A stretch of 64,000 nucleotides of DNA from Phyllobates terribilis (Eukaryota). Positions within the stretch are counted from its first letter, which is position 1. Each line of letters begins with the position of its first letter. The DNA is taken from contig NW_027362763.1 in the NCBI RefSeq assembly GCF_046119375.1, forward strand, positions 669,600,001 through 669,664,000, in the 5' to 3' direction. The translations under genes were made by a program, and so were the position numbers. Below, piece by piece: positions 2,726 through 37,994 of this stretch. The notes under the pieces were generated by a model. It was not told the origin of the DNA, did not search any database, and saw only the letters and a list, made by a program, of their open reading frames with translations.

Positions 2726-2809
2726 CATCTGTCTATCCGATAAGCAATATGCTGAACTCGAGCACTTGACAGACAACACGCTGTTTAGCAATTATGTTTC
2801 TAAAATATG

Positions 2810-3430: not shown

Positions 3431-4261
3431 AGGGACCTAAGGTGGCTGTGATGGCGAGGGAATGTTGTACTCCTTCACCCCGTATCCCAAACAAAGACAA
3501 GAGTCCAAAACTTCCCATGTGGTAATTGTGTTGCATGGCACTTGCAGTTTGCTTGTAGTTCTGCATCATCTGCGATCCATTTCCTTCAGGGACCACCACT
3601 TGAACATTAACAGATTTCCACTCCATTTTTATATCAAAACACAACTTTACTTTCTTCTTTAGCATAGCAGAACATTCAGGGAAGGACAGTTACATTGGCA
3701 GAGTTAGTTATTTACACAGCACATGTTCTTGTTTATTGTCCATTTGTCCTGAGCTATCCCTTTTCTTAGCTGGCCACTTTGACCCTTGAGATAGCTGAGA
3801 TACTGCAGCCTTGTGATTCGGGACTAATCCTCGTCCGTCTAGTCCTCCACTTCCTGGAGGACTTAAAGGAAGCCACACCACTACCTCTTCTAGACTATAG
3901 GTCCCAAACGTGATGGGAAAGTCTTTGTCTGATTTACAGGCCGACAATCCTCTACTGCTGGACTGACCATGCTGTTGCTTTTTTCCCTGGTCCTGCCACA
4001 AGTGTCCTTTAACAGTCACTTCCTCCAGTCCCCACTGTCCTGCTCCTCCCACACTTTGCAACTCTTATTCTTTTAACTATTTCCTCCCTTAAATCTATTT
4101 TAAAGTGCCCACCTCTGCACTGTCCAGATCCTATCGAAACCTAAACTGCCCTTAAGCTAACAGGTCCGACAACTGTCACATACATGTTCGTATACATATA
4201 ATAAGAAGAGTATAATAAATTGTGCACAAGGAGGGAAGAGGCGCATGACCTTCACATGTCA

Positions 4262-7200
4262 CTCCCTTACATGTGTGAGAGAAGGGAGACCATGGGGAGC
4301 AGTCTGTGTGAGAGAGGGGAGACCATGGGGAGCAGTCTGTGTAAGAGAGGGAAGAACATGGGGAGCGGTGTGTGTGTGAGAGAGGGGAGACCATGGAGAG
4401 CGGTGTGTGTGTGAGAGGGGGAGACCATGGGGAGCGGTCTGTGTGAGAGGGGAGACCATGGGGAGTGGTCTGTGTGAGAGAGAGGAGACCATGGGAAGTG
4501 GTCTGTGTCAGAGAGGGGGGACCATGGGAAGTGGTCTGTGTGAGAAAGGGGGGACCATGGGGAGCGGTCTGTGTTAGAGAGGGGGGACCATGTGGAGTGG
4601 TCTGTGTGAGAAAGGGGGAACCATGGGGAGCGGTCTATGTGAGAGAGGGGAGACCATGAGGAGCAGTCTGTGTAAGAGAGGGGAGACCATGGGGAGCGGT
4701 CTGTGTACGAGAGGAGAGACCATGGGCAGCGGTGTGTGTGTGTGAGAGAGGGGAGACCATGGGGAGCGGTCTATGTGAGAGAGGGGAGACCATGGGGAGC
4801 GGTCTGTGTATGAGAGGAGAGACCATGGGCAGCGGTGTGTGTGTGTGTGAGAGAGGGGAGACCATGGGGAGCGGTCTATGTGAGAGAGGGGAGACCACTG
4901 GAAGCGGTCTGTGTGAGAGAGTGGAAGCCACAGGGAGCGGTCTGTGTGAGAGAGGGGAGACCATGGGAAGCGGTGTGTGTGTGAGAGAGGGGACACCATG
5001 GAGAGCGGTGTGTGTGTGAGAGGGGGAGACCATGGGGAGCGGTCTGTGTGAGAGGGGACACCATGGGGAGCAGTCTGTGTGAGAGAGGGGAGATCATGGG
5101 GAGCGGTCTGTGTGAGAGAGAGGGGACCATGGGGAGCGGTCTGTGTGACAGAGGGGAGATCATGGGGAGCGGTGTGTGTGACAGAGGGGAGACCATGGGG
5201 AGCGGTGTGTGTGACAGAGGGGAGACCATGGGGAGCGGTCTGTGTGAGAGAGGGGAGACCATGGGGAGCGGTCTGTGTGACAGAGGGGAGATCATGGGGA
5301 GCGGTGTGTGTGACAGAGGGGAGACCACGGGGAGCGGTCTGTGTGGGGGGAGACCATGGGGAGCGGTCTCTGTGAGAAAGGGGGGACTATGGGGAGCGGT
5401 CTGTGTGACAGAGGGGAGATCATGGGGAGCAGTCTGTGTGAGCGAGGGGAGACCATGGGAAGTGGTCTGCGTGAGAGAGGGGGGACCATGGGGGGAGCGG
5501 TCTGTGTGAGAGAGGGAGGACCATGGGGAGCGGTCTGTGTGAAAAAGGGGGGACCATGGGGAGCGGTCTGTGTGAGAGAGGGGAGACCATGGGGAGCGGT
5601 CTGTGTGAGAGAGGGGAGACCATGGGGAGCGGTCTGTGTGAGAGGGGAGACCATGGGGAGCTGTCTGTGTGAGAGGGGAGACCATGGGGAGCTGTCTGTT
5701 TGAGAGAGTGGAGACCATGGGGGGCTGTCTGTGTGAGAGAGAGGAGATCATGGGGAGCGGTCTGTGTGAGAGAGGGGAGACCATGGGGAGCGGTCTGTGT
5801 GAGAGGGGGGAGACCATGGGGAGCGGTCTGTGTGAGAGGGGGGAGACCATGGGGAGCGGTCTGTGTGAGAGAGGGGAGACCATGGGGAGCGGTCTGTGTG
5901 AGAGAGGGGAGACCATGGGGAGCGGTCTGTGTGACAGAGGGGAGACCATGGGGAGCGGTCTGTGTGAGAGAGGGGAGATCATTGGGAGCGGTGTGTGTGA
6001 CAGAGGGGAGACCATGGGGAGCGGTCTGTGTGAGAGAGGGGAGATCATGGGGAGCGGTGTGTGTGACAGAGGGGAGACCATGGGGAGCGGTCTGTGTGAG
6101 AGAGGGGGGACCATGGGGAGCGGTGTGTGTGACAGAGGGGAGACCACGGGGAGCGGTCTGTGTGGGGGGAGACCATGGGGAGCAGTCTGTGTGAGAGAGG
6201 GGAGATCATGGGGAGCGGTCTGTGTGAGAGAGAGGGGACCATGGGGAGCGGTCTGTGTGACAGAGGGGAGATCATGGGGAGCGGTGTGTGTGACAGAGGG
6301 GAGACCATGGGGAGCGGTCTGTGTGACAGAGGGGAGACCATGGGGAGCGGTCTGTGTGAGAGAGGGGAGACCATGGGGAGCGGTCTGTGTGACAGAGGGG
6401 AGATCATGGGGAGCGGTGTGTGTGACAGAGGGGAGACCACGGGGAGCGGTCTGTGTGGGGGGAGACCATGGGGAGCGGTCTCTGTGAGAAAGGGGGGACT
6501 ATGGGGAGCGGTCTGTGTGACAGAGGGGAGATCATGGGGAGCAGTCTGTGTGACAGGGGGGACTATGGGGAGCGGTCTGTGTGAGAAAGGGGGGACTATG
6601 AGGAGCGGTCTGTGTGAGAAAGGGGGGACTATGGGGAGCAGTCTGTGTGACAGAGGGGAGATCATGGGGAGCGGTGTGTGTGACAGAGGGGAGATCATGG
6701 GGAGCGGTCTGTGTGACAGAGGGGACACCATGGGGAGCGGTCTGTGTGAGAAAGGGGAGACCATGGGAAGCAGTGTGTGTGTGAGAGAGGGAGACCATGG
6801 AGAGCGGTGTGTGTGTGAGAGGGGAGACCATGGGGAGCGGTCTGTGTGTGAGAGGGGGGACCATGGGAAGTGGTCTGTGTGAGAGAGGGGGGACCATGGG
6901 GAGCGGTCTGTGTAAGAGAGGGGGGACCATGGGGAGAGTGGTCTGTGTGAGAACGGGGGGACCATGGGGAGCGGTCTGTGTGAGCGAGGGGAGACCATGG
7001 GAAGTGGTCTGCGTGAGAGAGGGGGGACCATGGGGGGAGCGGTCTGTGTGAGAGAGGGAGGACCATGGGGAGCGGTCTGTGTGAAAAAGGGGGGACCATG
7101 GGGAGCGGTCTGTGTGAAAGAGGGGAGACCATGGGGAGCGGTCTGTGTGAGAGAGGGGAGACCATGGGGAGCGGTCTGTGTGAGAGGGGAGACCATGGGG

Positions 7201-10200
7201 AGCTGTCTGTGTGAGAGGGGAGACCATGGGGAGCTGTCTGTTTGAGAGAGTGGAGACCATGGGGGGCTGTCTGTGTGAGAGAGAGGAGATCATGGGGAGC
7301 GGTCTGTGTGAGAGAGGGGAGACCATGGGGAGCGGTCTGTGTGAGAGAGGGGAGACCATGGGGAGCGGTCTGTGTGAGAGGGGAGACCATGGGGAGCTGT
7401 CTGTGTGAGAGGGGAGACCATGGGGAGCTGTCTGTGTGAGAGAGTGGAGACCATGGGGAGCTGGCTGTGTGAGAGAGAGGAGACCATGGGGAGCGGTCTG
7501 TGTGAGAGAGGGGAGACCATGGGAAGCGGTCTGTGTGAGAGAGGGGAGACCATGGGGAGCGGTATGTGAGAGAGGGGAGACCATGGGGTGCTGTCTGTGT
7601 GAGAGAGGGGAGACCATGGGGAGCGGTCTGTGTGAGAGAGGGGAGACCATGGTGAGCCGTCTGTGTGAGAGAGGGGAGACCATGGGGTGCTGTCTGTGTG
7701 AGAGAGGGGAGACCATGGGGAGCGGTCTGTGTGAGAGAGGGGAGACCATGGGGAGCGGTCTGTGTGAGAGAGGGGAGACCATGGGGAGCGGTCTGTGTGA
7801 GAGAGGGGAGACCATGGGGAGCGGTCTGTGTGAGAGAGGGGAGCCCATGGGGAGCGGTCTGTGTGAGAGAAGGGAGACCATGGGGTGCTGTCTGTGTGAG
7901 AGAGGGGAGACCATGGGGTGCTGTCTGTGTGAGAGAGGGGAGACCATGGGGAGCGGTCTGTGTGAGAGGGGAGACCATGGGGTGCTGTCTGTGTGAGAGA
8001 GGGGAGACCATGGGGTGCTGTCTGTGTGAGAGAGGGGAGACCATGGGGTGCTGTCTGTGTGAGAGAGGGGAGACCATGGGGAGCGGTCTGTGTGAGAGAG
8101 GGGAGACCATGGGGAGCGGTCTGTGTGAGAGAGGGGAGACCATGGGGAGCGGTCTGTGTGAGAGAGGGGAGACCATGGGGAGCGGTCTGTGTGAGAGAGG
8201 GGAGACCATGGGGTGCTGTCTGTGTGAGAGAGGGGAGACCATGGGGAGCAGTCTGTGTGAGAGAGGGGGGACCATGGGGTGCTGTCTGTGTGAGAGAGGG
8301 GAGACCACGGGGAGCGGTCTGTGTGAGAGAGGGGAGACCACGGGGAGCTGTCTGTGTGAGAGAGGGGAGACCATGGGGAGCAGTCTGTGTGAGAGAGGGG
8401 AGACCATGGGGAGCGGTCTGTGTGAGAGAGGGGAGACCATGGGGAGCGGTGTGTGAGAGAGGGGAGATCACGGGGAGCGGTCTGTGTGAGAGAGGGGAGA
8501 CCATGGGGTGCTGTCTGTGTGAGAGAGGGGAGACCACGGGGAGCAGTCTGTGTGAGAGAGGGGAGACCATGGGGAGCGGTCTGTGTGAGAGAGGGGAGAC
8601 CATGGGGAGCGATCTGTGTGAGAGAGGGGAGACCATGGGGAGCGATCTGTGTGGGAGAGGGGAGACCATGGGGAGCGGTCTGTGTGAGAGAGGGGAGCCC
8701 ATGGGGAGCGGTCTGTGTGAGAGAAGGGAGACCATGGGGTGCTGTCTGTGTGAGAGAGGGGAGACCATGGGGTGCTGTCTGTGTGAGAGAGGGGAGACCA
8801 TGGGGAGCGGTCTGTGTGAGAGAGGGGAGACCACGGGGAGCGGTCTGTGTGAGAGAGGGGAGACCATGGGGAGCGGTCTGTGTGAGAGAGGGGAGACCAT
8901 GGGGAGCGGTGTGTGAGAGAGGGGAGATCACGGGGAGCGGTCTGTGTGAGAGAGGGGAGACCATGGGGTGCTGTCTGTGTGAGAGAGGGGAGACCACGGG
9001 GAGCAGTCTGTGTGAGAGAGGGGAGACCATGGGGAGCGGTCTGTGTGAGAGAGGGGAGACCATGGGGAGCGATCTGTGTGAGAGAGGGGAGACCATGGGG
9101 AGCGGTCTGTGTGAGAGAGGGGAGCCCATGGGGAGCGGTCTGTGTGAGAGAAGGGAGACCATGGGGTGCTGTCTGTGTGAGAGAGGGGAGACCATGGGGT
9201 GCTGTCTGTGTGAGAGAGGGGAGACCATGGGGAGCGGTCTGTGTGAGAGAGGGGAGACCATGGGGTGCTGTCTGTGTGAGAGAGGGGAGACCATGGGGTG
9301 CTGTCTGTGTGAGAGAGGGGAGACCATGGGGTGCTGTCTGTGTGAGAGAGGGGAGACCATGGGGTGCTGTCTGTGTGAGAGAGGGGAGACCACGGGGTGC
9401 TGTCTGTGTGAGAGAGGGGAGACCACGGGGAGCGGTCTGTGTGAGAGAGGGGAGACCATGGGGAGCGGTCTGTGTGAGAGAGGGGAGACCATGGGGAGCG
9501 GTGTGTGTGAGAGAGGGGAGATCACGGGGAGCGGTCTGTGTGAGAGAGGGGAGACCATGGGGTCCTGTCTGTGTGAGAGAGGGGAGACCACGGGGAGCGG
9601 TCTGTGTGAGAGAGGGGAGACCATGGGGAGCGGTCTGTATGAGAGAGGGGAGACCATGGGGAGCGGTCTGTGTGACAGAGGGGAGACCATGTGGAGCGGT
9701 GTGTGAGAGAGGGGAGACCACGGGGAGCGGTCTGTGTGAGAGAGGGGAGACCACGGGGAGCGGTCTGTGTGAGAGAGGGGAGACCACGGGGAGCGGTCTG
9801 TGTGAGAGAGGAGAACCATGGGGAGCAGTCTGTGTAAGAGAGGGGAGACCATGGGGACCGTTCTGTGTGAGAGAGGAGAACCATGGGGAGCGGTGTATGT
9901 GAGAAAGGGTAGACCACGGGGAGCGGTCTGTGTGAGAGAGGGGAGACCATGGGGAGCGGTCTGTGTGAGAGAGGGGAGACCACGGGGAGCGGTCTGTGTG
10001 ACAGAGGGGAGACCATGGGGAGCGGTCTGTGTGACAGAGGGGGGACCACGGGGAGCGGTCTGTGTGACAGAGGGGAGACCATGGGGAGCGGTGTGTGTGT
10101 GAGAGGGGAGACCATGGGGAGCGGTCTGTGTGACAGAGGGGAGACCATGGGGAGCGGTGTGTGTGACAGAGGGGAGACCACGGGGAGCGGTCTGTGTGGG

Positions 10201-10445
10201 GGGAGACCATGGGGAGCGGTCTGTGTGGGGGGAGACCATGGGGAGCGGTCTGTGTGAGAGAGGGGAGATCATGGGGAGCGGTGTGTGTGAGAGAGGGGAG
10301 ATCATGGGGAGCGGTGTGTGTGAGAGAGGGGAGATCATGGGGAGCGGTGTGTGTGAGAGGGGAGATCACGGGGAGCGGTCTGTGTGAGAGAGGGGAGACC
10401 ATGGGGAGCGGTCTGTGTGAGAGAGGGGAGACCACGGGGAGCGGT
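4262..10445. repeat. 33-bp G-rich minisatellite, main array (~6.2 kb) with higher-order duplications
   Basis: Unit CATGGGGAGCGGTCTGTGTGAGAGAGGGGAGAC, translating as MGSGLCERGET (11 aa = 33 nt). It generates the many spurious long ORFs at 4176-10556. Confidence 0.97.
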
Positions 10446-10750
10446 TACTGGCTCCTTTCTGGTCTCAGTGATCTGTTGGAGGAGGCTGCTCTGTGTAGTT
10501 GTATAATCTTGTATCCTAGATACTACAGAACCTTTGGTGATGTCATGGTGATGTGATCAGTTACATGAGGGGAGGAGCAAAGCAATGGATATTTCCTGTC
10601 ATGTGACCAGCAGATCACATGGCAGTGACATCACCACAGGTCCTGTATCCCAGGATACCACATAACAGACCAGTGATCGTTCGGTAGGTGAGCTGCTTTG
10701 TCTCTTTCCTCTCTGTATAACTCTGTGAGTTCCCTATACCACAGGTGCAG

Positions 10751-10765
10751 CCAGCAGGGGGCAGC
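10751..10765 (+). promoter_or_regulatory. Candidate CTCF core motif
   Basis: CCAGCAGGGGGCAGC closely matches the CTCF core consensus CCASYAGRKGGCRS. Motif match only. Confidence 0.35.
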
Positions 10766-11101
10766 TTCTCCTTCACAGTCTCTGCTCCCATGTTTGTTGT
10801 CCCTGGATATTCTGGAGATAATAATAATAATAATAATAGTTTATTTTTATAGCGCCAACATATTCCGCAGCACTTTACAAATTTTAGGGGGGACTTATAC
10901 AGACAATACAGAATAAGCATATCTCATATCGAACGGAGTGAGGGCCCTGCTCGCGAGCTTACAGTCTATGAGGAAGTGGGGGAGACACAAAAGGTAAAAA
11001 GTACATATATTGTATAATGCAGCCTTGATATACTGAATAGGATAAATAATAATACATGGACTGGTCGCCAGCCAGTATGTGTGCAGTCCTGACAGAGGCT
11101 A

Positions 11102-14100
11102 TTATGTGCATGGTTGGTTTGAACCCGAAGTTGAAGAAGATTTTAATATGGGGGAAAGCTGGGATGGACAGAGTGTGTTTAGGTGATACGCCAGTCTAAA
11201 GAAATATGTTTTTAGGGTTCGCTTGAAACTGTGGGTATTGGGAATTAATCGAACTGTCCTGGGTAGTGCATTCCAGAGAATTGGCGCAGCACGCGAGAAA
11301 TCTTGGAGACGGGAGTGGGAAGTTCGGATTATGGAGGATTTTAGTTTCAAGTCATTTGCAGAACGGAGGGCACGTGTAGGGTGGTAGACTGAGACAAGGG
11401 AGGAGATGTAGGGGGGTACTGAAGCATGGAGCGCTTTGTGGGTAAGCGTGATAAGTTTAAAACGAACTCTATATTGGATGGGCAACCAATGCAATGACTG
11501 GCACAGGGAAGAGGCATCTGAGTAGCGGTTGGCGAGGAATATGATCCTGGCTGCTGCGTTCAGGACGGATTGGAGAGGGGAGAGTTTAGTAAGAGGGAGA
11601 CCGATTAGTAGAGCGTTGCAATAGTCAAGACGAGAATGAATAAGAGCGACAGTAAGAGTTTTTGCCGAGTCAAAGGTGAGAAAAGTCCTGATTCTTGAGA
11701 TGTTTTTGAGGTGTAGATGACATGAACGAGCGAGTGATTTGATGTGAGGAGTGAAAGAAAGATCTGAATCAAAAATGACCCCAAGACAGCGGGCTTGTAG
11801 CTGGGGAGTAATGGTTGAGCCACAAACGGAGATGGCAATATCGGGCACAGGTAGATTAATGGAGGGAGGAAAGACGAGTAGTTCAGTTTTTGACAGATTC
11901 AGTTTTAGGTAGAGGGAGGACATAATGTTAGACACAGCAGAAAGACAATCACTGGTCTTTTGTAGTAATGCCGGGGTGATGTCCGGAGCAGAGGTGTATA
12001 ATTGGGTGTCATCAGCATAGAGATGGTACTGAAAACCGAATCTACTGATTGTTTGTCCAATAGGAGCGGTGTATAAGGAGAAAAGAAGGGGGCCTAGGAC
12101 TGATCCTTGAGGAACCCCAACAGTAAGAGGAAGTAGGGAGGAGGAGGAGCCGGCAAAAGACACAGAGAAGGAGCGGTCAGAGAGATAGGAGGAGAACCAG
12201 GAGAGAACCGTGTCCTTGAGGCCGATAGAGCGGAGCATAGTGAGGAGGAGCTGGTGATCCACAGTGTCAAATGCTGCAGAGAGATCCAGGAGAATCAGCA
12301 GGGAGTAGTGACCATTAGATTTAGCTGTTAGTAGATCATTAGAGACTTTAGTGAGGGCAGTTTCAGTAGAATGTAAAGAGCGGAAACCAGATTGTAAAGG
12401 GTCAAGAAGAGAGTTGTCTGAGAGATAGCGGATTAGACGGGAGTGGACCAGGCGTTCCAGGAGTTTAGAGATAAAGGGAAGATTGGAAACAGGTCTGTAG
12501 TTGGCCGTGCAGTTCTGGTCGAGGGATGGTTTTTTAAGTAATGGTTGTATGCTGGCGTGTTTAAAAGAAGAGGGAAAGATACCAGATGAGAGGGAAAGGT
12601 TGAAAATTTTAGTTAGGTGAGAGGTGACAGCTGGAGCAAGGGACTGAAGGAGATATGAGGGAATAGGGTCGCTGGTGCAGGTGGTAGGGCGAGAAGATGC
12701 AAGGAGCCTGATCACTTCATCTTCCGTGACTGGTTCGAAGTCAGAAAATGAGCAAGATACAATGTGGCGGGGGGGAGCATGCATAACATTTGGGGATTGG
12801 GAGAAAATTTCCTGTCGGATATGGTCAATTTTTTCTTTGAAATAGTTAGCCAGATCGTCAGCGCTGAGGTCGGTGGTCGGGGCCTGTGCTGTTTGATTGA
12901 GGAGAGAATGAAACGTGTCAAAGAGTCGTTTAGGATTATTGGAAAGTGAGATGATGAGGTTGTTAAAGTAGGTTTGTTTGGAGAAGTGAAGGGCAGAGTT
13001 ATATGTTTTCAGCATAAATTTATAGTGGAGGAAATCTTCGGGCAGATTTGATTTTCTCCACAGCCGTTCAGCGCACCTGGAGTACCTCTGGAGAAGACGT
13101 GTTTGAGGCGTGTGCCAGGGTTGTCGCCGTCTATGCCGAATTGTTCTTTGTGTAGGAGGTGCGGCTTCATCCAGGGCGCATAGCATTATTTTGTTATAAT
13201 GCTTCAATGCAGATTCGGGACATGAGAGGGAGGAGATTGGGGCCAATGATGATTGCAACCTTTTTATAAATTTCTGGGTGTTAATGGCGCGTAAATTTCT
13301 ATAAGTGTGGACGGTGGGAGTGTCTTGAGTAGAGTCACAGTTCTTGACAGAGAATGAAAGAAGATTATGGTCAGAGAGTGGAAGGGGAGAGTTAGTGAAG
13401 TCATGTACTGAGCAAAGCCGTGAGAAAATCAGGTCCAATGTGTTCCCGTCCTCATGTGTAGGAGAATTAGCAAGCTGTGAAAGGCCGAAGGAGGAGGTTA
13501 ATGATAAAAGATGCGTGGCAGATGGGGAAAGAGGATCGCCAATTGGGATGTTAAAGTCTCCCATGATTATCGTGGGGATGTCGCAGGATAGAAAATTTGT
13601 AAGCCAGGCAGCATAGTGATCCAGGAATTGACGGGGGGGACCTGGGGGGCGATAGACAACCGCCACTCGCAGGGAGAAGGGCCGGTAGAGTCTGACTGTG
13701 TGGGCCTCAAAGGACGGGAAGATAAGGGAGGGTACAGGGGGGATAACCTGAAAAGTACATTTTGTTGAAAGAAGCAGACCAACACCTCCACCTGATCTGT
13801 TGTCAGGTCGCGGGGTATGAGAGAAATGTAGGCCACCATAGGAGAGAGCTGCAGCGGCGGTGGTGTCCGACTGCTGGATCCAGGTTTCAGTGAGAGCCAG
13901 AAGGTTGAGGGAATTAGAGAGGAAAAAGTCATGGATGTAAGAGAGTTTATTACAAGCTGAGCGTGCATTCCAAAGGGCACAGTTGAATGAGACAGAAGAT
14001 ATGCAGGGAATATTAATGAGATTAGCAGGGTTTCTGAATGTAACAGGGAAAGTGTTAGTGTTATTATTACTGGAGGGTCCTGGGTTGGGAGAAATATCAC

Positions 14101-16125: not shown

Positions 16126-19100
16126 ATGGTCCTTTCCATCAGTGACCCCCCGAGGATGGAGCAGGGCAGAGACCACATGGCGGCTCGGATATTAGACCTC
16201 ACCCTGGAGATAATCTACTGGATCACTGGAGAGGTGAGAGCTTCACATCACATCACTCTGATCTCTAGTAATAAAGCCGAAAATGATGGGAAAGGTGAAG
16301 GATTCTCGGCCTCTGTGTAGTGATCGGCGTCTCCCCATACACAGGATCACACAGTAGTGAAGACGTCGTCTGGGGAGTGTGTGACCCCCCGTGTGTCAGG
16401 AGGGCGGAGCAGGACCCCCAGTGCCATCACCGAGCCTCCACCTCATTCACTGATACATGAGCAGAAGATCATAGAACTGACCACCAGGATCACTGAGCTG
16501 CTGAGCGGAGAGGTGAGCGCTGCCGGGAATGCTGGGACATTGTACAATAACGCCGGGGGAGGGGTCTGCTAATGACGGGTCATTGTGTGTGTCAGGTTCC
16601 TATAAGGTGTCAGGACGTCACCGTCTATTTCTCCATGGAGGAGTGGGAGTATCTAGAAGGACACAAGGATCTGTACAAGGACGTCATGGTGGAGAATCAC
16701 CCGTCCATCACATCACCGGGTAAGAGGAGACCTTCCTGGGTTGTAGAGGAGAGAACAGGTCTGAGAGTCGTCTAGATTCCCCATCATCTGCTCATCACAT
16801 ATAGACAATGTATTCAGACACTGCAGTTATTTCCTATAGATGGATCCAGTCCGAGAAATCCCCCGGAGAGATGTCCCAGTCCTCTGTATTCCCAGGATCG
16901 GCCAGAAAAGGAGGAAAATGTCCCCCGGGATCATCAGGTAGATGAGATGAGATTTCTACTATTCTTCTATACATTGATGTAATAAAGCTTTGTACAAAAC
17001 TCTTCCATCACCCGTGCAGTTTACACCTGGCAGTCCTCACAATATATATGCCGATCAGACATAACATGAAAAACTTTTGCTTAATATTGTGTCACCAGAA
17101 CAGTTCTGACTCATTAAGGCTCATGTGACGCTCGCAGTCCTGCCCTGAGAGGTGGGGGTACTCGGAGCCGGGTCAGATGTTTGGTGGGTTGTAGCCGTGG
17201 CCTGGACCCATTCCGTGCCCAGGGCAGTCACATTTTAAAAGGGTGTAATGGGCTTTCAGGGTTGGTGTTAATCGAGTGGTTGTATTGAGTACGCCACCTG
17301 TGGTGTCTGGTGATTCCCCACCAGCGCTGCGTTCAGTCCTCTGAGGCGGGATGTAGTGGCAGCCGGAGATGATACTACTCCCCACAGGCGGAGCAGGGCC
17401 TCTGGGCAGAGAAGACGGATCAGGGGAGTAGTAGTAGGAGATGTGGTGCGGTGCCGCGTTGCAATAAGAAACCGAAGGCCATAGGGGTAGTCTTCCAAAC
17501 TTTACTCACGGTGGTATGCACAGCTGCAAGGCTTCTCCCTTCTCCTCACGGCGCACTGCGGCCACCGGGACCGGGGGTCCGACAACCTCCAGGTAGTTCA
17601 GGTGCCTTGGTCAGGACCCCGCACCAGAGTGTTCCTAGACTTTTCCACTAGGTCCTCTCCGGTCCGTATGTGGTGCGTGTACTAAGGCTGGGTCTCCCTC
17701 TGGACTATGCACAGAACAAGGGTACGGGTGGCGACTCCGCTCCGTCCGTTACCCGGTGGGATCCACTGAGCCTCCGGGCTTCTCCGACTGAGACATAGAG
17801 TAACAAAGTCAGATATCGGGGGCCGGTACCCCTTTTGCAGCAGGAATCCCTCTGACTAGGCCAGAATAGCGAGGACAGGTGGCGTATACTGCTCCGTCTG
17901 CATCCCCCTGGGATCCTTTTGCCTGCGGAGCTTTACTCCTCCACTCCCCTCCAGGCCTTCTTGGGTAGGGACCTTGACCGGGTAGAGACAGCCGTTAACT
18001 CTTGCCCGCTCCTCGACTCAAGGCCAGAGTACGAGGACCGTGTCCCCATCAACTGCAGGTTCACACAGAAAGCCACGTTCAGTGATGAAGATCACAGTCA
18101 AAGACCATAAGCCCAAGATGGCTGTTTATTAAATATGAATTTTTGTTGTGTAACCTCCAAGTGTGTCCTCCACCCTCACCCACTACTAGGTTCCCCCTTA
18201 CTTTGGTTCCCCCATTTCCACTTATCCCGGCTGGGGCAGCACCCTGGTGCCTATAAGCCCCCCCACATGTGGGAGAGGTGTAGTGTTGGATGCAGAGGTG
18301 AGGTCCTGACAGTTGCACCATCCTTACCTCGAAGGAGGGATACCACACCTCATTAAAGAGATGCAGTACCCCTGTGGCGACCGAACCCTCAGGGGCACCA
18401 CATTCCTCCCTGGTGAAACACAGCACGTCCGCGGGCTGCAAAGAGAGCAAAACCTGGTACAGACTTTTTAAATTTTTGTATAACATTATAACAATCTTCC
18501 CATTATGGGAGGCACTTCTTCTTGAACGTTACAAACTTTAAATAGTATAAAAGTATACAAAAGTATAAAAACATCACAGAGACATTATGCAAATAGACAG
18601 ACTGATTAAAGTGCAGTACGCAAGAGTCAGTTCAGAAGCAAGAGGGACCTGTCCCAAACCCTCAACGTAGGCCCTGGGGTGGCTGCAGGGCATGAAGATC
18701 CGGAGTTGGACCTCCAGGAGAGCCACGCCAGACAGGTTTTTCTTCTGAGGTCTGAGGTAGTAGTAGAGCGGTTTTATATAAAACCAATAGGGAGCACCTA
18801 AAAAGATGCAAACTATTTACAAGAAGTAGAAGAGTCTGTCTACTGCCAGTCCGCAGGGACAAATATCTCTAGAATACGGCAGGAAAACATGGTTAACATA
18901 AGCAATAACAAATGAAGTCCAAAAGGTTACAGCCGCCGGGGCCGCTTAATCCATATCTCCCCACCGAGGAAAAGGCTCATTCCTCCCGACGGAGGCTGGT
19001 CGGTCCTCCACTGTCTTTCGCGAGGGGGCATCTCTCCTGGACACCTTGTGAACATCCAGGGCGTACCACCCCCACACCCCGTGGTGGCGGGTGTACGACA

Positions 19101-22100
19101 CGAAGTCACCCGAGAAGAGGTTCCGGCCAGGGTGTCCTTTCTTCAGCCGCTGCTCGACGTCCTGCCTGCTGACAAAGACGTCTTGCTCAAAGTGGGGACT
19201 TCTTATGAAGCCCCATCCTGCCTCGTGGTGGAAGCGGACGACTTGCCCGTGCTCCCGGGGGCTTGGACAGGCTGCCTCCTCCTGGCGGGCCCTGGATTTT
19301 GTGGCCTTGGCGCGCACCTCCAGGTGCTCGCAGCGGATTTCCCTCTGCCGTTGCTCCCTGTCAAGCTGGAGAATTTGCTGCCTACACAGCTCTCTCCTCC
19401 TTCGAGCTTCAGCTCGGGTCTCCTGGGGGAAACCCATCAGGTCCCCCCCCCTGGTTGTCCCAGGCCAACTCTTCCGCTGCCGGCCAGGCAACTGGAGGTG
19501 TGGGTAGCGGTGACAGCAGGGATTGCTGCAGGTCCTCGATCAGTGTGAACCAGTCCGGGTTGAAGTCGGTAGGTTCCCCAGTGGGCACAAGTTCCTCCGA
19601 GACAGGAGGCGGGAGGCAATGCAGGCCTCCGGCGATGGCGGAGGCTTCCAGCTCCGGGGCAAAGACCTGCTCCCAAATTACTGCACCAGGGAGCAGGTAC
19701 TCGGTCATCAGATCCAGGAGGGGCACAGTGTGCTCAGCAGCCGGGACGAGGGTTTCACTCTTACCCGATCCTGGGCTGCACGCAACCTCCGATGCTTCTT
19801 CCTCCTGGGTTGCTGCTCCTTGGCGGCAGGCCCGCATCTTTTGCAGCATCTCTTCTTGACACGCGGCGGACGCTGCACGCTGTGCCTCAGCAACCCTTCG
19901 GGCCAGGTCTGGGGTTTCCCGACGGAGAAACTCAGTATCTCCCGGGGTTAAGACCATGCCTCCCTCCTCTCCGACAGGAGTAAGACTTGGGCCGACTGCA
20001 GAAGGCTCGGGTTGACTTCCCTCAGCAGCGTCCATTACTGCTCCGGAGTATGGTAAGTCTCGAACTGTTATGGCCGCACCTTGTGGTTTCCTTCGTTTCC
20101 TCCTCTTTTCGGGGCGGCTCCAGGGCGGTAGGCTGACAGGCAGTCCTTGGGACGTCCCATCCGTCTTGACGGACACTACCTTGCGGACAGTCTCTGCTGG
20201 AAGGGGCGGTCTGCACTTTTGGCGCCTTGGGGGAGCCAGGCCCACCATAAGAGGTGCCAGGAAGCTGTCCTGTCTGCACATTATGGCGTCCATTCTTCTT
20301 GGGCGGGCGCCATTTTAAGTGGAAAGCGACAGTCTAAGGTAAAAGGTGCACAGTACCCGGTAGCAATGGGCAATTTCCTTCCGTTGCTGCGGGCACGCTA
20401 TCCTGCCAACTATGCCAAGTATGTGACGCTCGCAGCCCTGCCCTGAGAGGTGGGGGTACTCGGAGCCGGGTCAGATGTTTTGTGGGTTGTAGCCGTGGCC
20501 TGGAACCGTTCCGTGCCCAGGGCAGTCACATTTTAAAAGGGTGTAAAGGGCTTTCAGGGTTGGTGTTAATCGAGTGGTTGTATTGACTACGCCACCTGTG
20601 GTGTCTGGTGATTCCCCACCAGCGCTGTGTTCAGTCCTCTGAGGCGGGATGTAGTGGCAGCCGGAGATGATACTACCCCCCACAGGTGGAGCAGGGCCGA
20701 GAAGACGGATCAGAGGAGTAGTAGTAGGAGATGTGGTGCGGTGCCGCGATGCAATAAGAAACCGAAGGCCATAGGGGTAGTCTTCCAAGCTTTTCTCACG
20801 GTAGAATGTACAGCTGCAAGGCTTCTCCCTGCTCCTCACGGCGCGCTGCGGCCACCAGGACCGGGGGTCCGACAGCCTCCAGGTAGTTCAGGTGCCTTGG
20901 TCAGGACCCCGCACCAGAATGTTCCTAGACTTTCCCACTAGGTCCTCTCCTGTCCGTATGTGGTGCGTGTACTAAGGCTGGGTCTCCCTCTGGACTATGC
21001 ACAGAACAAGGGTACGGGTGGCGACTCCGCTCCGTCCGTTACCCGGTGGGATCCACTGAGCCTCCGGGCTTCTCCGACTAAGACATAGAGTAACAAAGTC
21101 AGATATCGGGGGCCGGTATCCCTTTTGCAGCAGGAATCCCTCTGACTAAGCCAGAATACCGCTCCATCTGCATCCCCCTGGGATCCTTTTGCCTGCGGAG
21201 CTTTACTCCTCCGCTCCCCTCCAGGCCTTCTTGGGTAGGGACCTTGACCGGGTAGAGACAGCCGTTAACTCTTGCCCGCTCCTCGACTCAAGGCCAGAGT
21301 ACGAGGACCGTGTCCCCATCAACTGCAGGTTCACACAGAAAGCCACGTTCAGTGATGAAGATCACAATCAAAGATCATAAGCCCAAGATAGCTGTTTATT
21401 AAATATTAATTTTTGTTGTGTAACCTCTAAGTGTGTCCTCCACCCCCACCCACTACTAGGTTCCCCCTTACTTTGGTTCCCCCATCTCCACTTATCCCGG
21501 CTGGGGCAGCACCCTGGTGCCTATAAGCCCCCCCACAGGTGGGAGAGGTGTAGTGTTGGATGCAGAGATGGGGTCCTGACAGTTGCACCATCCTTACCTC
21601 GAAGGAGGGATACCACACCTCATTAAAGAGATGCAGTACCCCTGTGGCGACCGAACCCTCAGGGGCGCCACACTCAGACTCCACAAGTTTCTGAATGTTC
21701 CCTGTGTAATCTGGAGCCAAAACATTGAAACATTAGCAACAAATCCTTTAATGTCTCGAATAGGATTCCCTTTTATTTTTTTAATTTATATCTTTAATGT
21801 GGGATTTTTACAGGAAAGTTCTGGTGAAATAACGAGAGGACTTGAAAACCCCACTTCAGCATCACTGACCGGTAAAAGCCACTCATGGGAAGATCAGTAA
21901 AATGTCTTATTTCTTTCTTTTTTGAACTTTTACAAGAAAATTAGGGTGAAGAAGGGCGATGTAGAGGGGTGTGGTCTGTAAATGGGACCTTTCCATGTGT
22001 TATTTTCCTCTATGTCCATTTTACTTTATTTACTCCTTGTCGTTGTCACAGACTTAGTAAAGCTTCATTAGTTTCTTTAGAAAAATGAAAACATGTTGGT

Positions 22101-22877
22101 TTCCTTTTTTCAGATGAAAACGGGATGAGCGGCTCCATTGCACATCACAATGTGTCTCTCTGTTATGAAGTAGAGGATAACAATATAATAGCCGATGATG
22201 AACCTGCCGTCAATCAGTGCATTCATTCATCCTCTGACCTCGCCGATTGCTGGATACCTTCATCTGATCAATCGCTGATCCAGGACCAAACTGGAAATGT
22301 ATGGAAATATTTAAAAAATAAATCTAATCGTACTTTGCCTGAGCAAATTGTGACAGACGCACAGCCATTTTTATGTTCCGAATGTGGGAAATGTTTCTCG
22401 AGGGAAATTCAACTTAAGAGACATCGGAGAACTCACACAGAGAAGAAGCCGTACTCTTGTCCTGAATGTGGGAAGCGTTTTCGTACAAAAACACTTCTTA
22501 AGAACCATGTAAGAGTACACACGGGGGAGAAGCCGTTTCCTTGTCCTGAATGTGGGAAGCGTTTTGGTACAAAAACACTTCTTAAGACCCATGTAAGAGT
22601 ACACATGAGGGAGAAGCCGTTTCCTTGTCCTGAATGTGGGAAATGTTTTAGACGGAAAACATATCTTGCGACTCATCTAAAAACTCACACGGGGGAGAAA
22701 CCATTTATATGCTCAGAATGTGGGAAATGTTTTAGCCATAAATCACATAAATTGGTTCATCTAAGAAGTCACACAGGGGAGAAACCATTTTTGTGTTCAG
22801 ATTGTGGGAAATGTTTTGCCCACAAATCAAATCTTGATAGACATAAGAGAAATCACAAGAAGGAGAAGAGATTTTAA
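16126..22877 (+). CDS. FAX/KRAB-domain C2H2 zinc-finger protein (ZNF-A), 6 coding exons, about 439 aa
   Basis: Model: 16126-16233, 16345-16512, 16596-16719, 16840-16937, 21814-21871, 22114-22877. All introns GT-AG with consistent phases (0,0,1,0,1); 1320 nt in total. The start could instead be 16156 or 16177. An extra linker exon cannot be excluded. Confidence 0.8.
16596..16719 (+). CDS. KRAB-A-like exon of ZNF-A
   Basis: [35 protein letters not shown] matches the KRAB-A pattern DVxVxFSxEEWxxL....LYxDVMxEN. AG acceptor at 16594-16595, GT donor at 16720. Confidence 0.9.
17124..18402 (-). repeat. 3' LTR (1279 bp)
   Basis: TGTGACGCTCGCAG...GAACCCTCAGGGGCACCACA. Direct repeat of 20422-21672, which lacks an 8-nt and a 20-nt segment. 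Confidence 0.95.
18403..18411 (-). promoter_or_regulatory. Polypurine tract
   Basis: Minus strand AGGGAGGAA immediately precedes the TG of the 3' LTR. Confidence 0.75.
18946..19491 (-). CDS. C-terminal part of the LTR-element internal ORF with a cold-shock domain (CSD at about 19042-19254)
   Basis: [56 protein letters not shown] aligns by eye to the CspA/Y-box pattern G-x-V-x-x-F-x4-G-[FW]-GFI, DVFV, L-x2-G-x2-V-x-[FY], G-x2-A-x2-V. Confidence 0.8.
   Translation of the reverse strand: MPGRQRKSWPGTTRGGDLMGFPQETRAEARRRRELCRQQILQLDREQRQREIRCEHLEVRAKATKSRARQEEAACPSPREHGQVVRFHHEAGWGFIRSPHFEQDVFVSRQDVEQRLKKGHPGRNLFSGDFVSYTRHHGVWGWYALDVHKVSRRDAPSRKTVEDRPASVGRNEPFPRWGDMD
19409..20293 (-). CDS. N-terminal part of the LTR-element internal ORF (Pro/Glu/Ala-rich, predicted coiled segments, unknown function)
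   Basis: 294-aa ORF, sense to PBS and PPT. Overlaps the next ORF across a G9 run at 19443-19451. Confidence 0.55.
   Translation of the reverse strand: MDAIMCRQDSFLAPLMVGLAPPRRQKCRPPLPAETVRKVVSVKTDGTSQGLPVSLPPWSRPEKRRKRRKPQGAAITVRDLPYSGAVMDAAEGSQPEPSAVGPSLTPVGEEGGMVLTPGDTEFLRRETPDLARRVAEAQRAASAACQEEMLQKMRACRQGAATQEEEASEVACSPGSGKSETLVPAAEHTVPLLDLMTEYLLPGAVIWEQVFAPELEASAIAGGLHCLPPPVSEELVPTGEPTDFNPDWFTLIEDLQQSLLSPLPTPPVAWPAAEELAWDNQGGGPDGFPPGDPS
20401..20417 (-). promoter_or_regulatory. Primer-binding site complementary to the tRNA-Ser(AGA/UGA) 3' end
   Basis: Minus strand TGGCATAGTTGGCAGGA lies 4 nt from the LTR. The complement of the vertebrate tRNA-Ser 3' end is TGGCGTAGTCGGCAGGA (2 differences). 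Confidence 0.8.
20422..21672 (-). repeat. 5' LTR (1251 bp)
   Basis: TGTGACGCTCGCAG...GAACCCTCAGGGGCGCCACA, adjacent to the PBS. Confidence 0.95.
22114..22877 (+). CDS. Zinc-finger exon of ZNF-A (6 C2H2 fingers)
   Basis: Six CxxC..HxxxH units with TGEKP-type linkers. Polypyrimidine/CAG acceptor at 22111-22113. Confidence 0.95.
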
Positions 22878-23221
22878 TGTTCCGATACTTGATTGAAATG
22901 TTTCAGAGATAGGACCTGCTGCCTATATATGCCTTCTCACATACAATGTGACCCTTACAGGTCTTGTGTTTTCACAGAAAGACACAGTCAGTACTCTGCA
23001 GACTAAAGTCCAACTCACTAGAGTAGGACATGAATGCGATAGAAGGAGTCTAATTTCCACATTTGGGCTTGGACACCCTACAGGTTTTGAAAGGTTAAGA
23101 AACTCACATTAAATGTCTGTCACATATAATCCACCTAAAACAGCAGATAGTCAAATCATTAAACTTACAAGCTATCCTAAAAAATTAGAATATAGATTAG
23201 TAAAAATAGACTATTTATTAT

Positions 23222-25314: not shown

Positions 25315-28300
25315 TGTGGTAGTGCTACTCGCTTATCTGCTCTCAGAGGTAGACACAGGAACAATTGGGGTTAATGTCCGTGGCTGGTTTATTACTTCAT
25401 AAACCAGAAAATAAAATGGTAACACAAAATGTCCCACTTTGGCATAAATGAAAATCCACAGCACTCAGAAAGTCTTTTCCGCTGCGGTTCCGGCCTTGTG
25501 GAAAATAACACACTTTAGCTCGCACTTGAGTACCCAACTGGAGACTTCTTTGTCTTCAAACACACAACAGAGAAAAAATCTCAGTAGCTGGACATTTAAC
25601 TTCCCCAACCACACCCTTGAAGTCGAGATATGGTGAGTGGCTGTCCCACTCCTCTCTTACAACCACTCACAAAAAAAGCCAACCCTGTCATTGCGGATTA
25701 ACATGCTGTAGAGAAACTCCTGGGTTTCACATCATGGAAGATAGTAATCTTCGTGGTACATATCTCCCCTCACATTCTTTTCCAGTAAACCTGTCGCATA
25801 TCCCCCCCTCTGCCCAAAGCCAGGGGTTTTGACACCAAACGGAATTCTGGAGAGGGCATCAGTGTTACTGTATAACTTTCCGGGCCTTTGCTCTATGTGA
25901 AAACTAAAGTCCTGAAGGCCTAAGAGCCACCTAGTCACCCGAGCATTTTTACCCTTCTTTTCACATAACCATCTCAGAGGGGCATGGTCTGACACTAGTT
26001 TAAACCTACGAGCTAGTCGGTAATTCATCAGCCTATCCTCTGCCCATTTGATGGCTAAGCACTCTTTCTCGACAATGGCATAATTATTCTCGCAGGAAGA
26101 CAGTTTCCGGCTCAGATACAGGAAGGGATGCTCTTCACCATTTATCTCTTGAGACAGCACGGCTCCCAAGCCAACTTCTGAAGCATCTGTCTGGACCACA
26201 AATTCTTTACTAAAGTCTAGTGTGGCCAGGATCGGCTGTTTACATAAGGCCAGCTGCAGCTCTTGGAATGCCATCTCCATTTTAGCAGTCTATTTGGCCA
26301 TCATCGATTTGGTGCCTTTAAGAAGATCCCTCAGTGATGCGGCAATCACGGTGAGATTTGGGATAAACCGCCAGTAATATTCTACAATTCCAAGAAACGC
26401 CCTAACCTGCTCCTTGGAGAGAGGTTGCGGCCGCTTCTGGATTTCCTCAACCTTGTTTACTTGTGGCTAGATTTCGCCTCTCCCGACGATGTAGCCTAAG
26501 TACTTGGCCTCTTCCTTCCCCATGGCTCATTTTTTTGGGTTTATAGTAAACTCCGCTTTTCTCAGAGCATCCAGAATCGCCTGTACCTTTGGTAGATGAG
26601 TATCCCAGTCTGGGCTAAGACCACAATTTCATCGTGGTAGGCTGCGGCATATTTCTTATGTGGAGGTAGGAGCCAATCCATGGTCCTTTGGAAGGTGGCT
26701 GGGCCAGGGTTTCGCTGCAGCAGTTCTCAGCACTGTTGCTTCTGGGCTGGCAATGGTGTCTCTGCAATCATGACTTCTACTTTGGCTTTGGGACTTGTTC
26801 CCAGACAAGGAGCTTCCAGCGTTTCCTGATCTCGCCATTGCTTGAGCAAGTTCATGTGGTATACTTGGTGTGGCTTCCTTCGTCCTGGCTGGTGGACCTT
26901 ATATCCCTGGCTGGAACTGCCTCAGCCTCGCTGATCAGTTATGTACCCTTGCCTGTGACTCCTGTGCTTGGAGAAGATTCGCCTTTAACGATAGGTATAA
27001 TTTTCGCCATTCTTTTCTGCTACTGGGCGACGTGCTCTATGACGCTCTGGTGGGGCGTGACCTTGGCTTCCCAGGTTTCCTTGGCGATGTCTACAAGCCC
27101 TCGTGGATGTCGACCATACAGGGGCTTGAACGGACAGAAACCAGTGGAGGCTTGAAGAACTTCTCTGACTGAGAAGAGCAGAAATGGAAGCAGATAGTCC
27201 CAGTCTCGACCGTCTTTCTCAATGACCTTCTTAAGCATGGCCTTTAAGGTCTTATTGAAATGCTCTACTAGGCTGTCTGTCTGCGGATAGTAGACTGAGG
27301 TTCGCAGTTGGGAAATCTGGAGGACCTTACACAACTCCTTCATCACCTTGCTCATGAAGGGGGTTCCCTGGTTCTTCAAGATCTCCTTTGGCATGCCTGC
27401 CCTGGCAAAAATATGAACATGTTTCCGGGCTATAATTTTGGCCAATGTGTTCCTTAGTTGTACTGCTTCTGGGTACCAGTTCGCATAGTCAATGACCACT
27501 TGAATGCATTGATGCCCCCTCACTGGCAATTGGACTAGGGGACTGCTGAAGTGAAAAGAAGGAGCGATTCTGGCAGGTGGGGCAGGACCTACAATAATTT
27601 AGGATCTCCCAGTAACATCCGGGCCAATAGAACCGCTGCATTATTATTATAAAATTCTCCGGTAGGGTCCTGGACCTAACAGCTGCTCCACTATGTCACC
27701 TTCCCTCAGTTTGGATACCTGATAAAATAACTCCCCATTAACTGCAAAATGTGGGAACCTGGTGTCTGCCCCTGGCTTTTGAGCAACCCTGTTATAGACG
27801 GTAACATTGCTAAACGCCCCTTTTAAGGTAAGTTCCCTAACTTGAGCAGTCCCAAAGTTCTCTCCGGACACTTCCAACTCAGGGAGGTTGGACTTCTCGG
27901 TCACCATCTCGTCCTCCTCACTGACTAGGATACACAGAGGAAACGCCTCCATCTTTGTTTTCGATGGAGTTTCTTCCTGAGGGATCTGACTTTTGTCTTG
28001 ACACTCTCGGTACGATCTTCTTTTGCCACATATCCCAAAACAAGGAAAAGTCTTGCCCCAATATGACCGGATGTATCAAGTCCTTGACTATCTTGATCTC
28101 ATGGGACTGGGCACCACAATCTGTTTCCATGGCCACAGTTTAGCACTTGGCGTCCCCGTGTATACAGCGAACAGCCATGGATTTGGCAGGGATCAACTGG
28201 TCAGGAAGTGTAGCACTGTTCAGGGTCACCAAACTTTCCGAATCCAAGTCCACACTACAGACCGGATAGGCTTAATAGGAACAACGTCGGCCTAGGATGC

Positions 28301-32920: not shown

Positions 32921-33057
32921 CTCTTCCCTCCTTTTTGAATGTCGTCCTCGACATTCATCTTAATTGGTCTTAATTGGACAATCTAACCAATTCTGAGACA
33001 GTGGTGAAAGATAGATAACTTTATATACAAATTGGCATTGTGAAATTGGTAAAAAAA

Positions 33058-34315
33058 CTATACGTATGACACATAAACTAAATGCAGTATAAAATGTAAC
33101 ATTTATTAATGATAATTTAAAAATACATAATTGGAATAAAAGATGGGGAAAGGAGTCACAAAAAAGAAAGGCCACAGAGGTAAGTATCAGCAATACTAAG
33201 ATTAACATGCACGAGATGGATACATCAAAACAAATTCTCCACATGAAGTGTTAAAATGTTGTATATGCAAATAATAGAGTGAAACAGTGGTAAAGTGCAA
33301 TGTGCTAATATACTTCCCACAATATTAGATATATATAAAAGTAACAAGACAAGGTGAGAATGGTGTGCAAGGATAGGGCATGTGTTACATATTTAAGCTG
33401 GTACTGAACCGTGAGACCTGGATCCAACGCGCGTTTCGCCGAAGCTTTCACAAGGATATAGTGAGAGGAAGGATAGGAGGGTATTTATAAAAGGTCCAGC
33501 CAATGGGGGAACAGGGAATGATGAAAAAGTACTGCTTACACATGTGCTGTGCTACTGATATGGCGCCATATCGTGTGGCCGTGTAACCTTTCCCCACGCT
33601 GAGGTGCGACTCACAGGAGCGCAGATCAGCTGGGGAAGTCGGATGCCGGCGTGCGTGTCATTGAACCGGTGGAACGCACAAACCGGAAGTGACGTAGTGC
33701 CGGAGGCACAGGAAGTATGCTGAGGTGTGCGTTCCACTGTATGAGACGCAAAGAGGAACAGATGGGAGATCATATTAAGCGGTGAAGTGGAAGGAAAAGT
33801 GAAAGAAAATGTAAAGAGGTGTATAATGATGTAAATAAGTGCGTGTGTGAGATTTGGACAAAACATAAGTGTAAGAGAGTGAAGAGAAATGGTCATAAAA
33901 GTATAGTGTGAAAGAATATGTGAATATAAAAATATGAGTGCCGCGAAAATATTTAATACCATAGTGAAATGAATTGCAGTTGGCAAATACATTACCATCC
34001 TGAATTAAAACAAAAACTCCATACAATGTAGGAGAATTAGATAGATTAAAAGTTGAGTCCCTCTGATAAATAAATATATGGAGATCAATAAGATACTTCA
34101 ACAAAGCTTACATGTATAGCAAAATACCACAATATCAGAGAAAACAGCACATATAGAAACAGATATATATACAGAAATATATGGATGAAAGTCGAGCGCC
34201 AATGGCATATTCGTGAATACAAAGCAGTGATATGGAAGAAGTATCATGGGATCCTGATGTCATCAGCAGTCTGAAGGAAATGGCTGGAAGACGGACAAAT
34301 CAGCTGGCGAAAGAA
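33058..34315 (-). repeat. Left inverted arm (inverted copy of the 3' pseudo-LTR)
   Basis: Reverse complement of 36671-37928; about 9 substitutions seen by eye. Confidence 0.93.
33422..33457 (-). ncRNA. Second copy of the variant hammerhead-like motif (left arm)
   Basis: Same sequence on the minus strand, with a C(UUCG)G stem II loop. Confidence 0.5.
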
Positions 34316-36514: not shown

Positions 36515-36670
36515 GTAGTATATTTATTAGGTATCTCTATGATCATTTGTTTTTATTTTTATTTTAATATTTATTTTCTTTTTACTATTTATTTGATTTC
36601 TTATATTTATTCCTGTGTTTCTTTATTTTACTTACCCTTTTTCTCTTTTTATTTTGCTATCTATATGTAG

Positions 36671-37928: not shown

Positions 37929-37994
37929 GTTTTATGGTTAAATAGACACATCTACATATATATTTTTTTCTCACACTGGCTATCTAATTTTCGT

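Follow-up and report, generated by a model that had tools for sequence, protein, structure and literature searches.

We describe here a long terminal repeat (LTR) retrotransposon at positions 17124-21672 of a 64,000-nt stretch of the genome of the poison frog Phyllobates terribilis (assembly GCF_046119375.1, contig NW_027362763.1, positions 669,600,001 to 669,664,000; hereafter, the window), which encodes no enzyme and carries a single gene ending in a cold-shock domain (CSD). The element is very probably a non-autonomous satellite and belongs to a large family, in which the CSD and the helix adjacent to it are under strong purifying selection. As a full mechanism, we favor that this satellite is copied by the enzymes of a Ty3/Gypsy helper and that its CSD protein, as predicted, binds and stabilizes its own RNA. 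The original prediction, which had been made from the window, proposed a non-autonomous LTR family with a sole, CSD-carrying product that possibly substitutes for nucleocapsid, aids packaging by a helper Gypsy, or masks element RNA in oocytes; the family and its product are retained here, none of the outcomes listed beforehand as refuting the prediction was observed, and the substitution for nucleocapsid is weakened.

The element lies on the minus strand of the window, and an interior of 2019 nt is enclosed by the two LTRs:

17120-17123, plus strand: left target-site duplication, CTCA
17124-18402, minus strand: 3' LTR of 1279 nt, TG..CA
18403-18411, minus strand: polypurine tract (PPT) of 9 nt, abutting the 3' LTR
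20400-20417, minus strand: primer-binding site (PBS) of 18 nt, with a 4-nt spacer from the 5' LTR
20422-21672, minus strand: 5' LTR of 1251 nt, TG..CA
21673-21676, plus strand: right target-site duplication, CTCA

In an alignment of the two LTRs, 1209 positions match, 40 are mismatched, and there are two indels; the element is structurally complete, as had been proposed. The Kimura two-parameter distance between the two LTRs is 3.3%, and the element is therefore an older copy; its PBS, which we take to be of the tRNA-Ser type, is two transitions away from the form in young copies. The TG..CA LTRs, the PBS, the PPT, and a duplication within the range of 4-6 bp are structural hallmarks of Ty3/Gypsy, and the element has all of them. 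It does not possess the gag and pol of its own that define an autonomous Ty3/Gypsy element (Metaviridae), and its intact cis signals without pol are those of a non-autonomous LTR retrotransposon. Indeed, when eight frames of the element were scanned with Pfam, no family of gag, protease, reverse transcriptase (RT), RNase H, or integrase was found, and the matches were confined to the CSD-bearing frame and its sub-stretch. Queries with gag, RT, and integrase of the helper described below gave no match inside the element, either, which confirms the earlier impression of an interior devoid of gag/pol motifs.

The interior has two sense frames, 301 and 197 codons long, which together constitute a single gene broken at a G run in the window copy:

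18946-19446, minus strand: 3' piece of the gene, with a conserved DLMGF motif, a helix, the CSD, a short tail, and the stop
19051-19251, minus strand: CSD, Y-box-like
about 19270-19416, minus strand: second helix, 49 residues, in the 3' piece
19412-20314, minus strand: 5' piece of the gene, a 301-codon frame including predicted helix 1 and a Pro/Ala/Glu-rich disordered stretch
19443-19451, minus strand: G run, the frameshift site in the window copy
about 19795-19945, minus strand: predicted helix 1, within the 5' piece
20035, minus strand: second conserved ATG, the candidate true start
20036-20281, minus strand: initial ~82 codons, counted from the first conserved ATG, near-neutral as protein

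Among the 29 nearest other copies, L009, L014, and L015 carry the gene as an uninterrupted frame of 444 codons, counted from the first Met, and open frames of similar length are found in L030 and L012. The open reading frame (ORF) at 18946-19491, which had been taken for the gene, thus contains the CSD as claimed but is as a whole only the 3' piece left after the frameshift. The first ~82 codons are probably an RNA leader and not protein because of their near-neutral evolution, and translation is suggested to begin at the second conserved ATG (window 20035). Long antisense frames are also present in several copies and can be explained by the high GC content.

The CSD in the window copy was matched by PF00313 with an E-value of 8.5e-6 and 26 bits, which is just below the cut-off of 27 bits; relatives scored 29-46 bits and hence above the cut-off (L281 was left out of one of these scans). 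In a sequence search of the Protein Data Bank (PDB) at E<=10, all five matches were CSD proteins, each of them weak. An AlphaFold model of the last 166 residues encoded by the window copy, for which a 29-row alignment was used as the input, had a mean pLDDT of 83 and was composed of the 49-residue helix and a five-stranded barrel, namely the oligonucleotide/oligosaccharide-binding (OB) barrel that characterizes a CSD. The top matches of this model in Foldseek were cold-shock proteins (E 3e-7; root-mean-square deviation (rmsd) 1.8 A to CspA, TM 0.90 by target), and the top rows of VIA-align were CspB (Z 11.6, rmsd 2.9, 70 aligned), Lin28, Unr, and CRHSP-24. PF00313, the PDB matches, and the model with its two fold searches therefore agree on the CSD that had been suspected in the sense frame. 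In a model of a full-length natural copy (mean pLDDT 54.5), furthermore, disorder, a long helix, disorder, the second helix, and the CSD follow one another with no capsid fold, and a profile of the CSD protein had no match to the helper gag (probability 0.1%). As far as these models go, the gene is predicted to encode two long helices and a CSD but no capsid fold, so that the ORF is not a fragment of known gag, a possibility that had been raised against the prediction.

In the genome of 10.6 Gb, the first-look candidates numbered 36,408 with the CSD query and 33,380 with PF00313. All of the 150 PF00313 matches that were scored were above the cut-off, many being in frames of 700-800 codons; the top eight of the 150 were pieces of host CSDE1-like sequence, and one (L051) was a Y-box-like pseudogene. 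When eight PF00313 loci were opened to 20 kb, seven had the arrangement of LTR-one ORF-LTR with 1.2-kb LTRs, and the eighth had one LTR. The exact junction of the LTR end and the PBS was matched at 42,765 places for the young lineage, 459 for the window type, and 469 for a distant lineage, with no match to the reversed control of any of the three. The CSD is hence not confined to the window copy; with at least 33,000 candidate CSD stretches and at least five LTR lineages (that of the window, two sister groups, a short lineage, and a distant lineage), the widespread group of several subfamilies that had been anticipated does exist.

The LTRs of the distant lineage (L306-L311 and L317-L320; e.g., G000:C11:476650009-476654678) are 1.03 kb long and have no blastn relation to the others; its PBS is the same, its interior measures 2.6 kb, and its CSD is ~30% identical to that of the window copy. 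Gag was absent from all of the 30 loci sampled from its 469 junctions. The short lineage (L275-L276 and L273-L274) has a 1.4-kb interior and a different Ser-type PBS, and its first in-frame Met is located at the start of the CSD, so that the helices apparently lie outside its protein. CSD or PBS matches are also seen 3.3-3.6 kb apart (e.g., G000:C3:843718425 and 843721789; C3:355463527-355471094), and this spacing suggests tandem arrays of LTR-interior-LTR-interior-LTR.

Among 1.84 billion representative proteins, 43 were matched at E<=0.001. The four best and three other single-stretch matches were proteins of Ranitomeya, Phyllobates, and Anomaloglossus named as uncharacterized or CSD-containing, and the rest had mostly several matching stretches, two that were examined being transcripts from a protist set. 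An alignment-based search gave four proteins, all of them dendrobatoid. No match was obtained with the 197-residue piece alone as the protein query, the ESM Atlas gave generic CSD leads only, and no relative of the family was found in viral contigs. Some dendrobatid gene models called "uncharacterized" or "CSD domain-containing" are thus likely to be ORFs of mobile elements.

The strength of selection was estimated with 32 natural open ORFs (25 young, four of the middle group, and three of the window type), from which L164, L192, and L194 had been left out with their start motif unmatched. The omega from IQ-TREE was 0.073 for the CSD, 0.159 for the motif and helix 2, 0.216 for helix 1, and 0.695 for the first 69 columns, values obtained from ORFs that had been picked for openness and from pairs that are non-independent, which is to be counted among the reservations given below. 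The log-likelihood (lnL) for the CSD was -2025 with omega free and -2288 with omega at 1, both of which are approximate with kappa fixed at 2. Pairwise dN/dS in the CSD was 0.09 among young copies, 0.18 between middle and young, 0.32 between window-type and young, and 0.29 among the three window-type copies; differences at the third codon position (0.33) exceeded those at the other two (0.08 and 0.05), while the three positions had equal rates at the gene start in young copies. In all five regions, variants common to several copies were more constrained than singletons (0.14 vs 0.28 in the CSD), and frames of at least 500 codons were kept in 29 of the 34 young CSD-bearing copies. The dN/dS among copies, which had been named as a check, is low and indicates purifying selection, in place of the value near 1 expected of neutral evolution.

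A helper was recognized among the elements with the junction of the young lineage. The first 70 of the 42,765 junctions, which come from the first 16.4 Mb of contig C1 and favor young copies by the exact-PBS filter, were classified into 27 of gag type, 39 of CSD class, three chimeras, and one unclassified. Gag, RT, and integrase were present between paired LTRs in 21 of the gag-type elements, three had no 3' LTR in the examined stretch, and three were internally deleted; none of the 27 contained a CSD. Among the CSD class, 34 were CSD-bearing, four had the CSD deleted, and one had it interrupted, and gag/pol was found between the LTRs in none of the 39. The helper domains are arranged as PNMA-type gag, CCHC, protease, RT, RNase H, and integrase, which is the order of Ty3/Gypsy. 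The median LTR identity was 99.3% in helpers (n=21) and 99.7% in CSD elements (n=30), and 4-bp target duplications were found in 20/21 and 27/30, respectively; the CSD elements therefore represent many independent insertions.

The helper and the young CSD lineage have in common a stretch of ~300 nt at the end of the LTR, the PBS, a leader of ~200 nt, a near-identical PPT, and the 4-bp duplication. In local alignments of the helper with the CSD class, indeed, the last 300 nt of the LTR scored 290 (26 when shuffled) and the first 200 nt of the interior 168 (22 when shuffled), while U3 scored 31 against 25 for shuffled sequence and is hence not common. An autonomous partner with the same U5, PBS, leader, and PPT is thus present for the young sister lineage. 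The original prediction had asked whether autonomous relatives carry the ORF next to gag-pol; a gag-pol Gypsy with common cis signals was found, with no CSD in any of the 27 gag-type elements. The RT and integrase matches near the CSD elements L174 and L194 were on the opposite strand beyond the 3' LTR, with ~41% identity, and are considered as unrelated neighbors. Identity with Troyka is ruled out by its 3-bp duplication and CG ends, as given in the accessible part of its description, and that with Lokiretrovirus by the Gypsy-type domains of the helper, in which no frame of env length was seen.

The two classes also recombine, given a gag/CSD-tail chimera in 2,006 copies. In L121 and L202 (G000:C1:9.10 Mb and 15.96 Mb), helper LTRs and 5' gag are followed by ~310 nt of the CSD class, corresponding to the ORF tail and the 3' untranslated region (UTR), and then by the helper 3' UTR; in L155, a helper-type 5' LTR stands ahead of a CSD-class interior and 3' LTR. 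We infer that such chimeras fit template switching in shared particles.

As to the origin of the CSD, a profile of 15 family members matched YB-1/YBX2 with 48-51 bits, the best bacterial Csp with 40, Lin28 with 18, CARHSP1 with 17, and CSDE1 with 16.5. The family CSD has a Y-box-like long loop between strands 3 and 4, and the alignment of the divergent member L281 with YB-1 is ungapped across 70-71 residues. In terms of sequence, therefore, YBX1/YBX2 (FRGY2) is the best match and has the same loop, and the CSD was likely captured from a host Y-box gene. Y-box proteins have a near-invariant CSD followed by a long tail of alternating basic and acidic stretches, according to the accessible text of PMC6040738. 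The frog protein departs from this design with an identity of ~25-29%, the Trp/His contacts mostly lost, a tail of ~30 residues, and flanks made of long helices, which lie upstream, and Pro-rich disorder. The cluster of L281 and L282 (G000:C4:791483745-791520331) contains about three divergent CSD frames, with three matches within 40 kb, in which the RNP2 His and the ungapped alignment to YB-1 are kept; no flanking LTR pair was found around the cluster, which is possibly a host-fixed or relic copy. Also observed were intronless copies of what we take to be CSDE1 (L077-L078, G000:C1:734434001-734454000), partly duplicated and broken by retroelements, and the decayed sequence of L051, presumably Y-box-like.

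In the mechanism that we favor, the LTR would drive a transcript serving as both mRNA and genome. With the common U5-PBS-leader and PPT, helper Gag would package this RNA, and helper RT and integrase would copy and insert the satellite. The CSD protein would coat or chaperone the RNA of the element, preferring the molecule that encodes it, and the RNA would thereby survive better or gain access to helper particles. Such a preference would explain selection on the gene even though the element can be copied without any protein of its own. The effect would be helpful but not essential, since derivatives without the CSD have spread as well, and replacement of nucleocapsid is unnecessary because helper Gag has its own CCHC zinc knuckle; with no capsid in the CSD protein, the proposed substitution is thus weakened. 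Host YB-1 is reported to stabilize the RNA of human immunodeficiency virus (HIV) and murine leukemia virus (MLV) in the accessible text of PMC6040738, and high expression of Gypsy elements in the ova of poison frogs is reported in that of PMC6278860.

Several observations weigh against this reading. For the subfamily of the window itself, no helper was found, with no gag at 30 junction loci and the 29 nearest U5/PBS matches; the subfamily has only 155 nt in common with the young helper at 66%, and its U5/PBS similarity to two helper subfamilies is distant. The chimera junction at 2,006 places is CSD-less, and a CSD-deletion junction occurs at 62 places, for which recurrent deletion at microhomology could also be the source. 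The spread of these derivatives means that the CSD protein is not strictly required in cis and leaves the cis preference putative. In the fold searches, bacterial Csp was level with or above YB-1, so that Y-box and Csp are not distinguished by fold, and the Y-box origin is hence based on the sequence and the loop length. On the putative binding face, the RNP1 and RNP2 Phe are retained in the window copy, but the strand-1 Trp has been lost from every lineage and 13 of the 15 aligned members lack the RNP2 His; we take both residues to be RNA contacts in YB-1. An aromatic residue in strand 5, which is present in 15/15, may or may not compensate for the lost contacts.

Alternatively, the CSD protein might act in trans for both helper and satellite as an RNA stabilizer, a translation enhancer, or a shield from germline silencing, in a two-component system like a segmented retrotransposon. 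Consistent with this are the co-amplification of the two classes in similar numbers and ages, the absence of the CSD from all 27 gag-type elements, and the mobility of CSD-less derivatives; also, a PBS that we take to be of the Ser-CGA type occurs in the CSD element L275 of the short lineage and in a gag element in L274 with a similar LTR end. Cheaters would nonetheless be expected to erode a product that is entirely shared, whereas omega is 0.07 and the sample contains 34 CSD-bearing copies against 7 CSD-less ones; the helper, moreover, has complete gag-pol, and we regard such a system as rather unlikely. We are equally doubtful about its strongest form, in which the satellite supplies a domesticated Y-box protein that both components need for RNA stability or for escape from germline masking or silencing; if true, the segmented pair would have driven part of the gigantism of poison-frog genomes.

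Maintenance at the level of the host, where the frog would benefit from the protein or depend on it, for example, because it mimics Y-box proteins in oocytes or embryos, appears improbable. A precedent is reported for the Gag of zebrafish BHIKHARI, of which Bik-1, an LTR element with one ORF and without pol, is required for development (accessible part of bioRxiv 2024.03.25.586437), and the low-copy divergent cluster of L281/L282 could be host-fixed. Selection is, however, seen along the replicating lineages with shared variants more constrained in five regions, older copies including that in the window decay by frameshift, and with thousands of copies the host selection on each would be weak.

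Slightly less probable still is a barrel that no longer binds nucleic acid and has become a module for protein interaction or a decoy, for example, one that binds helper Gag or titrates a host restriction factor. The partial loss of the canonical aromatic and His contacts would agree with this, as would the constraint on the adjoining short motif and the 49-residue helix (omega 0.16), but the RNP1/RNP2 aromatics and glycines are kept across lineages of ~30% identity, the new aromatic is invariant, and one lineage apparently starts its protein at the CSD without the helices. Finally, a passenger, namely a host fragment or decayed gag carried neutrally, is refuted by the selection tests and has hardly any chance of being correct: while the window copy is frameshifted and just below the Pfam cut-off and the first ~70 codons are near-neutral, the omega of the CSD, its lnL relative to that at omega 1 (again with kappa fixed), the excess of third-position differences, and the lack of a capsid fold and of a profile match to helper gag are all contrary to it.

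Single-ORF LTR elements without pol are known in plant TR-GAG and mammalian MaLR, which encode Gag or a Gag-like protein. TRIM, LARD, and Cassandra retain the LTRs, PBS, and PPT and use the enzymes of a partner, and Cassandra has captured host sequence; to our knowledge, these three encode no conserved protein. The frog element differs from TRIM/LARD, of which the interior is by definition presumably non-coding, in its selected ORF. In oncogene-transducing retroviruses, a captured host gene replaces viral genes and is spread by a helper in short-lived somatic events; the frog family is, in contrast, of the germline, lacks env, and is old enough for its lineages to be only ~30% identical in the CSD. 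Zebrafish BHIKHARI (bioRxiv 2024.03.25.586437) and the 1A11 and Xretpos elements of Xenopus (PMC4585706) are, in the accessible parts of these sources, similar to the frog element in having LTR-one ORF-LTR without pol, in recent mobility, and in the need for a partner. The ORF of BHIKHARI and Xenopus 1A11 is nonetheless described there as Gag or Gag-like, whereas that of the frog has no capsid fold or gag similarity and is hence not a gag-only element; the copy number of the frog family is also ~100 times that of single-ORF pol-less elements.

The closest likeness is found in bird endogenous retroviruses (ERVs), where 46 with PF00313 among >470,000 are reported in the accessible text of PMC12287698, with repeated capture and a possible aid to proliferation suggested. 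These are LTR retroelements with a captured PF00313 domain as well, but they were placed by RT and have the CSD at varying positions; the frog CSD is, unlike theirs, the only gene of a pol-less Ty3/Gypsy satellite in tens of thousands of copies with measured purifying selection. No description of a selected, high-copy, CSD-only LTR satellite was found in the open-access literature, with closed journals as well as Repbase and Dfam, which may hold such families without a functional note, being outside this scope; the accessible parts of PMC12440569, PMC7947760, PMC13583293, and PMC12822217 contain nothing on the frog CSD family. No description of the family had been known when the prediction was made, and this holds for the CSD-only satellite within that literature but not for CSD capture itself, which the bird report covers. 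Together with that report, our results point to repeated recruitment of the CSD by retroelements.

Non-autonomous elements are usually seen as non-coding parasites or remnants of gag, and here a captured host-type gene is under strong selection in several old lineages, which raises the question of how a gene persists in an element needing no protein for copying. A rough extrapolation from the 70 of 42,765 junctions gives ~24,000 CSD-class and ~16,500 helper copies, and a specific contributor to giant frog genomes can be named.

Elsewhere in the window, two LTRs are related to those of the element:

49560-52110, minus strand: related outer solo LTR, 70-73% identical to the LTR of the element, TATT duplication, interrupted by the inner solo LTR
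50182-51465, minus strand: nested inner solo LTR, belonging to a sister subfamily, with a TATC duplication

Both had been noticed before as related solo LTRs and are real, one being nested in the other. Decayed fragments of Gypsy integrase, 27-32% identical to that of the helper, are located at 27086-27647 and 39191-39831. Inverted repeats of 1263 nt (99%) at 33053-37933 surround frames at 34217-36511, which we take to resemble a Penelope-type RT and a GIY-YIG nuclease, and a Tc1-like transposon at 47625-49268 has 279-nt inverted ends and an open frame of 356 codons. Two related C2H2 zinc-finger-like exons lie in opposite orientation at 22089-22885 and 61154-61984, and a long G-rich minisatellite of 31/33 nt occupies 2800-14000.

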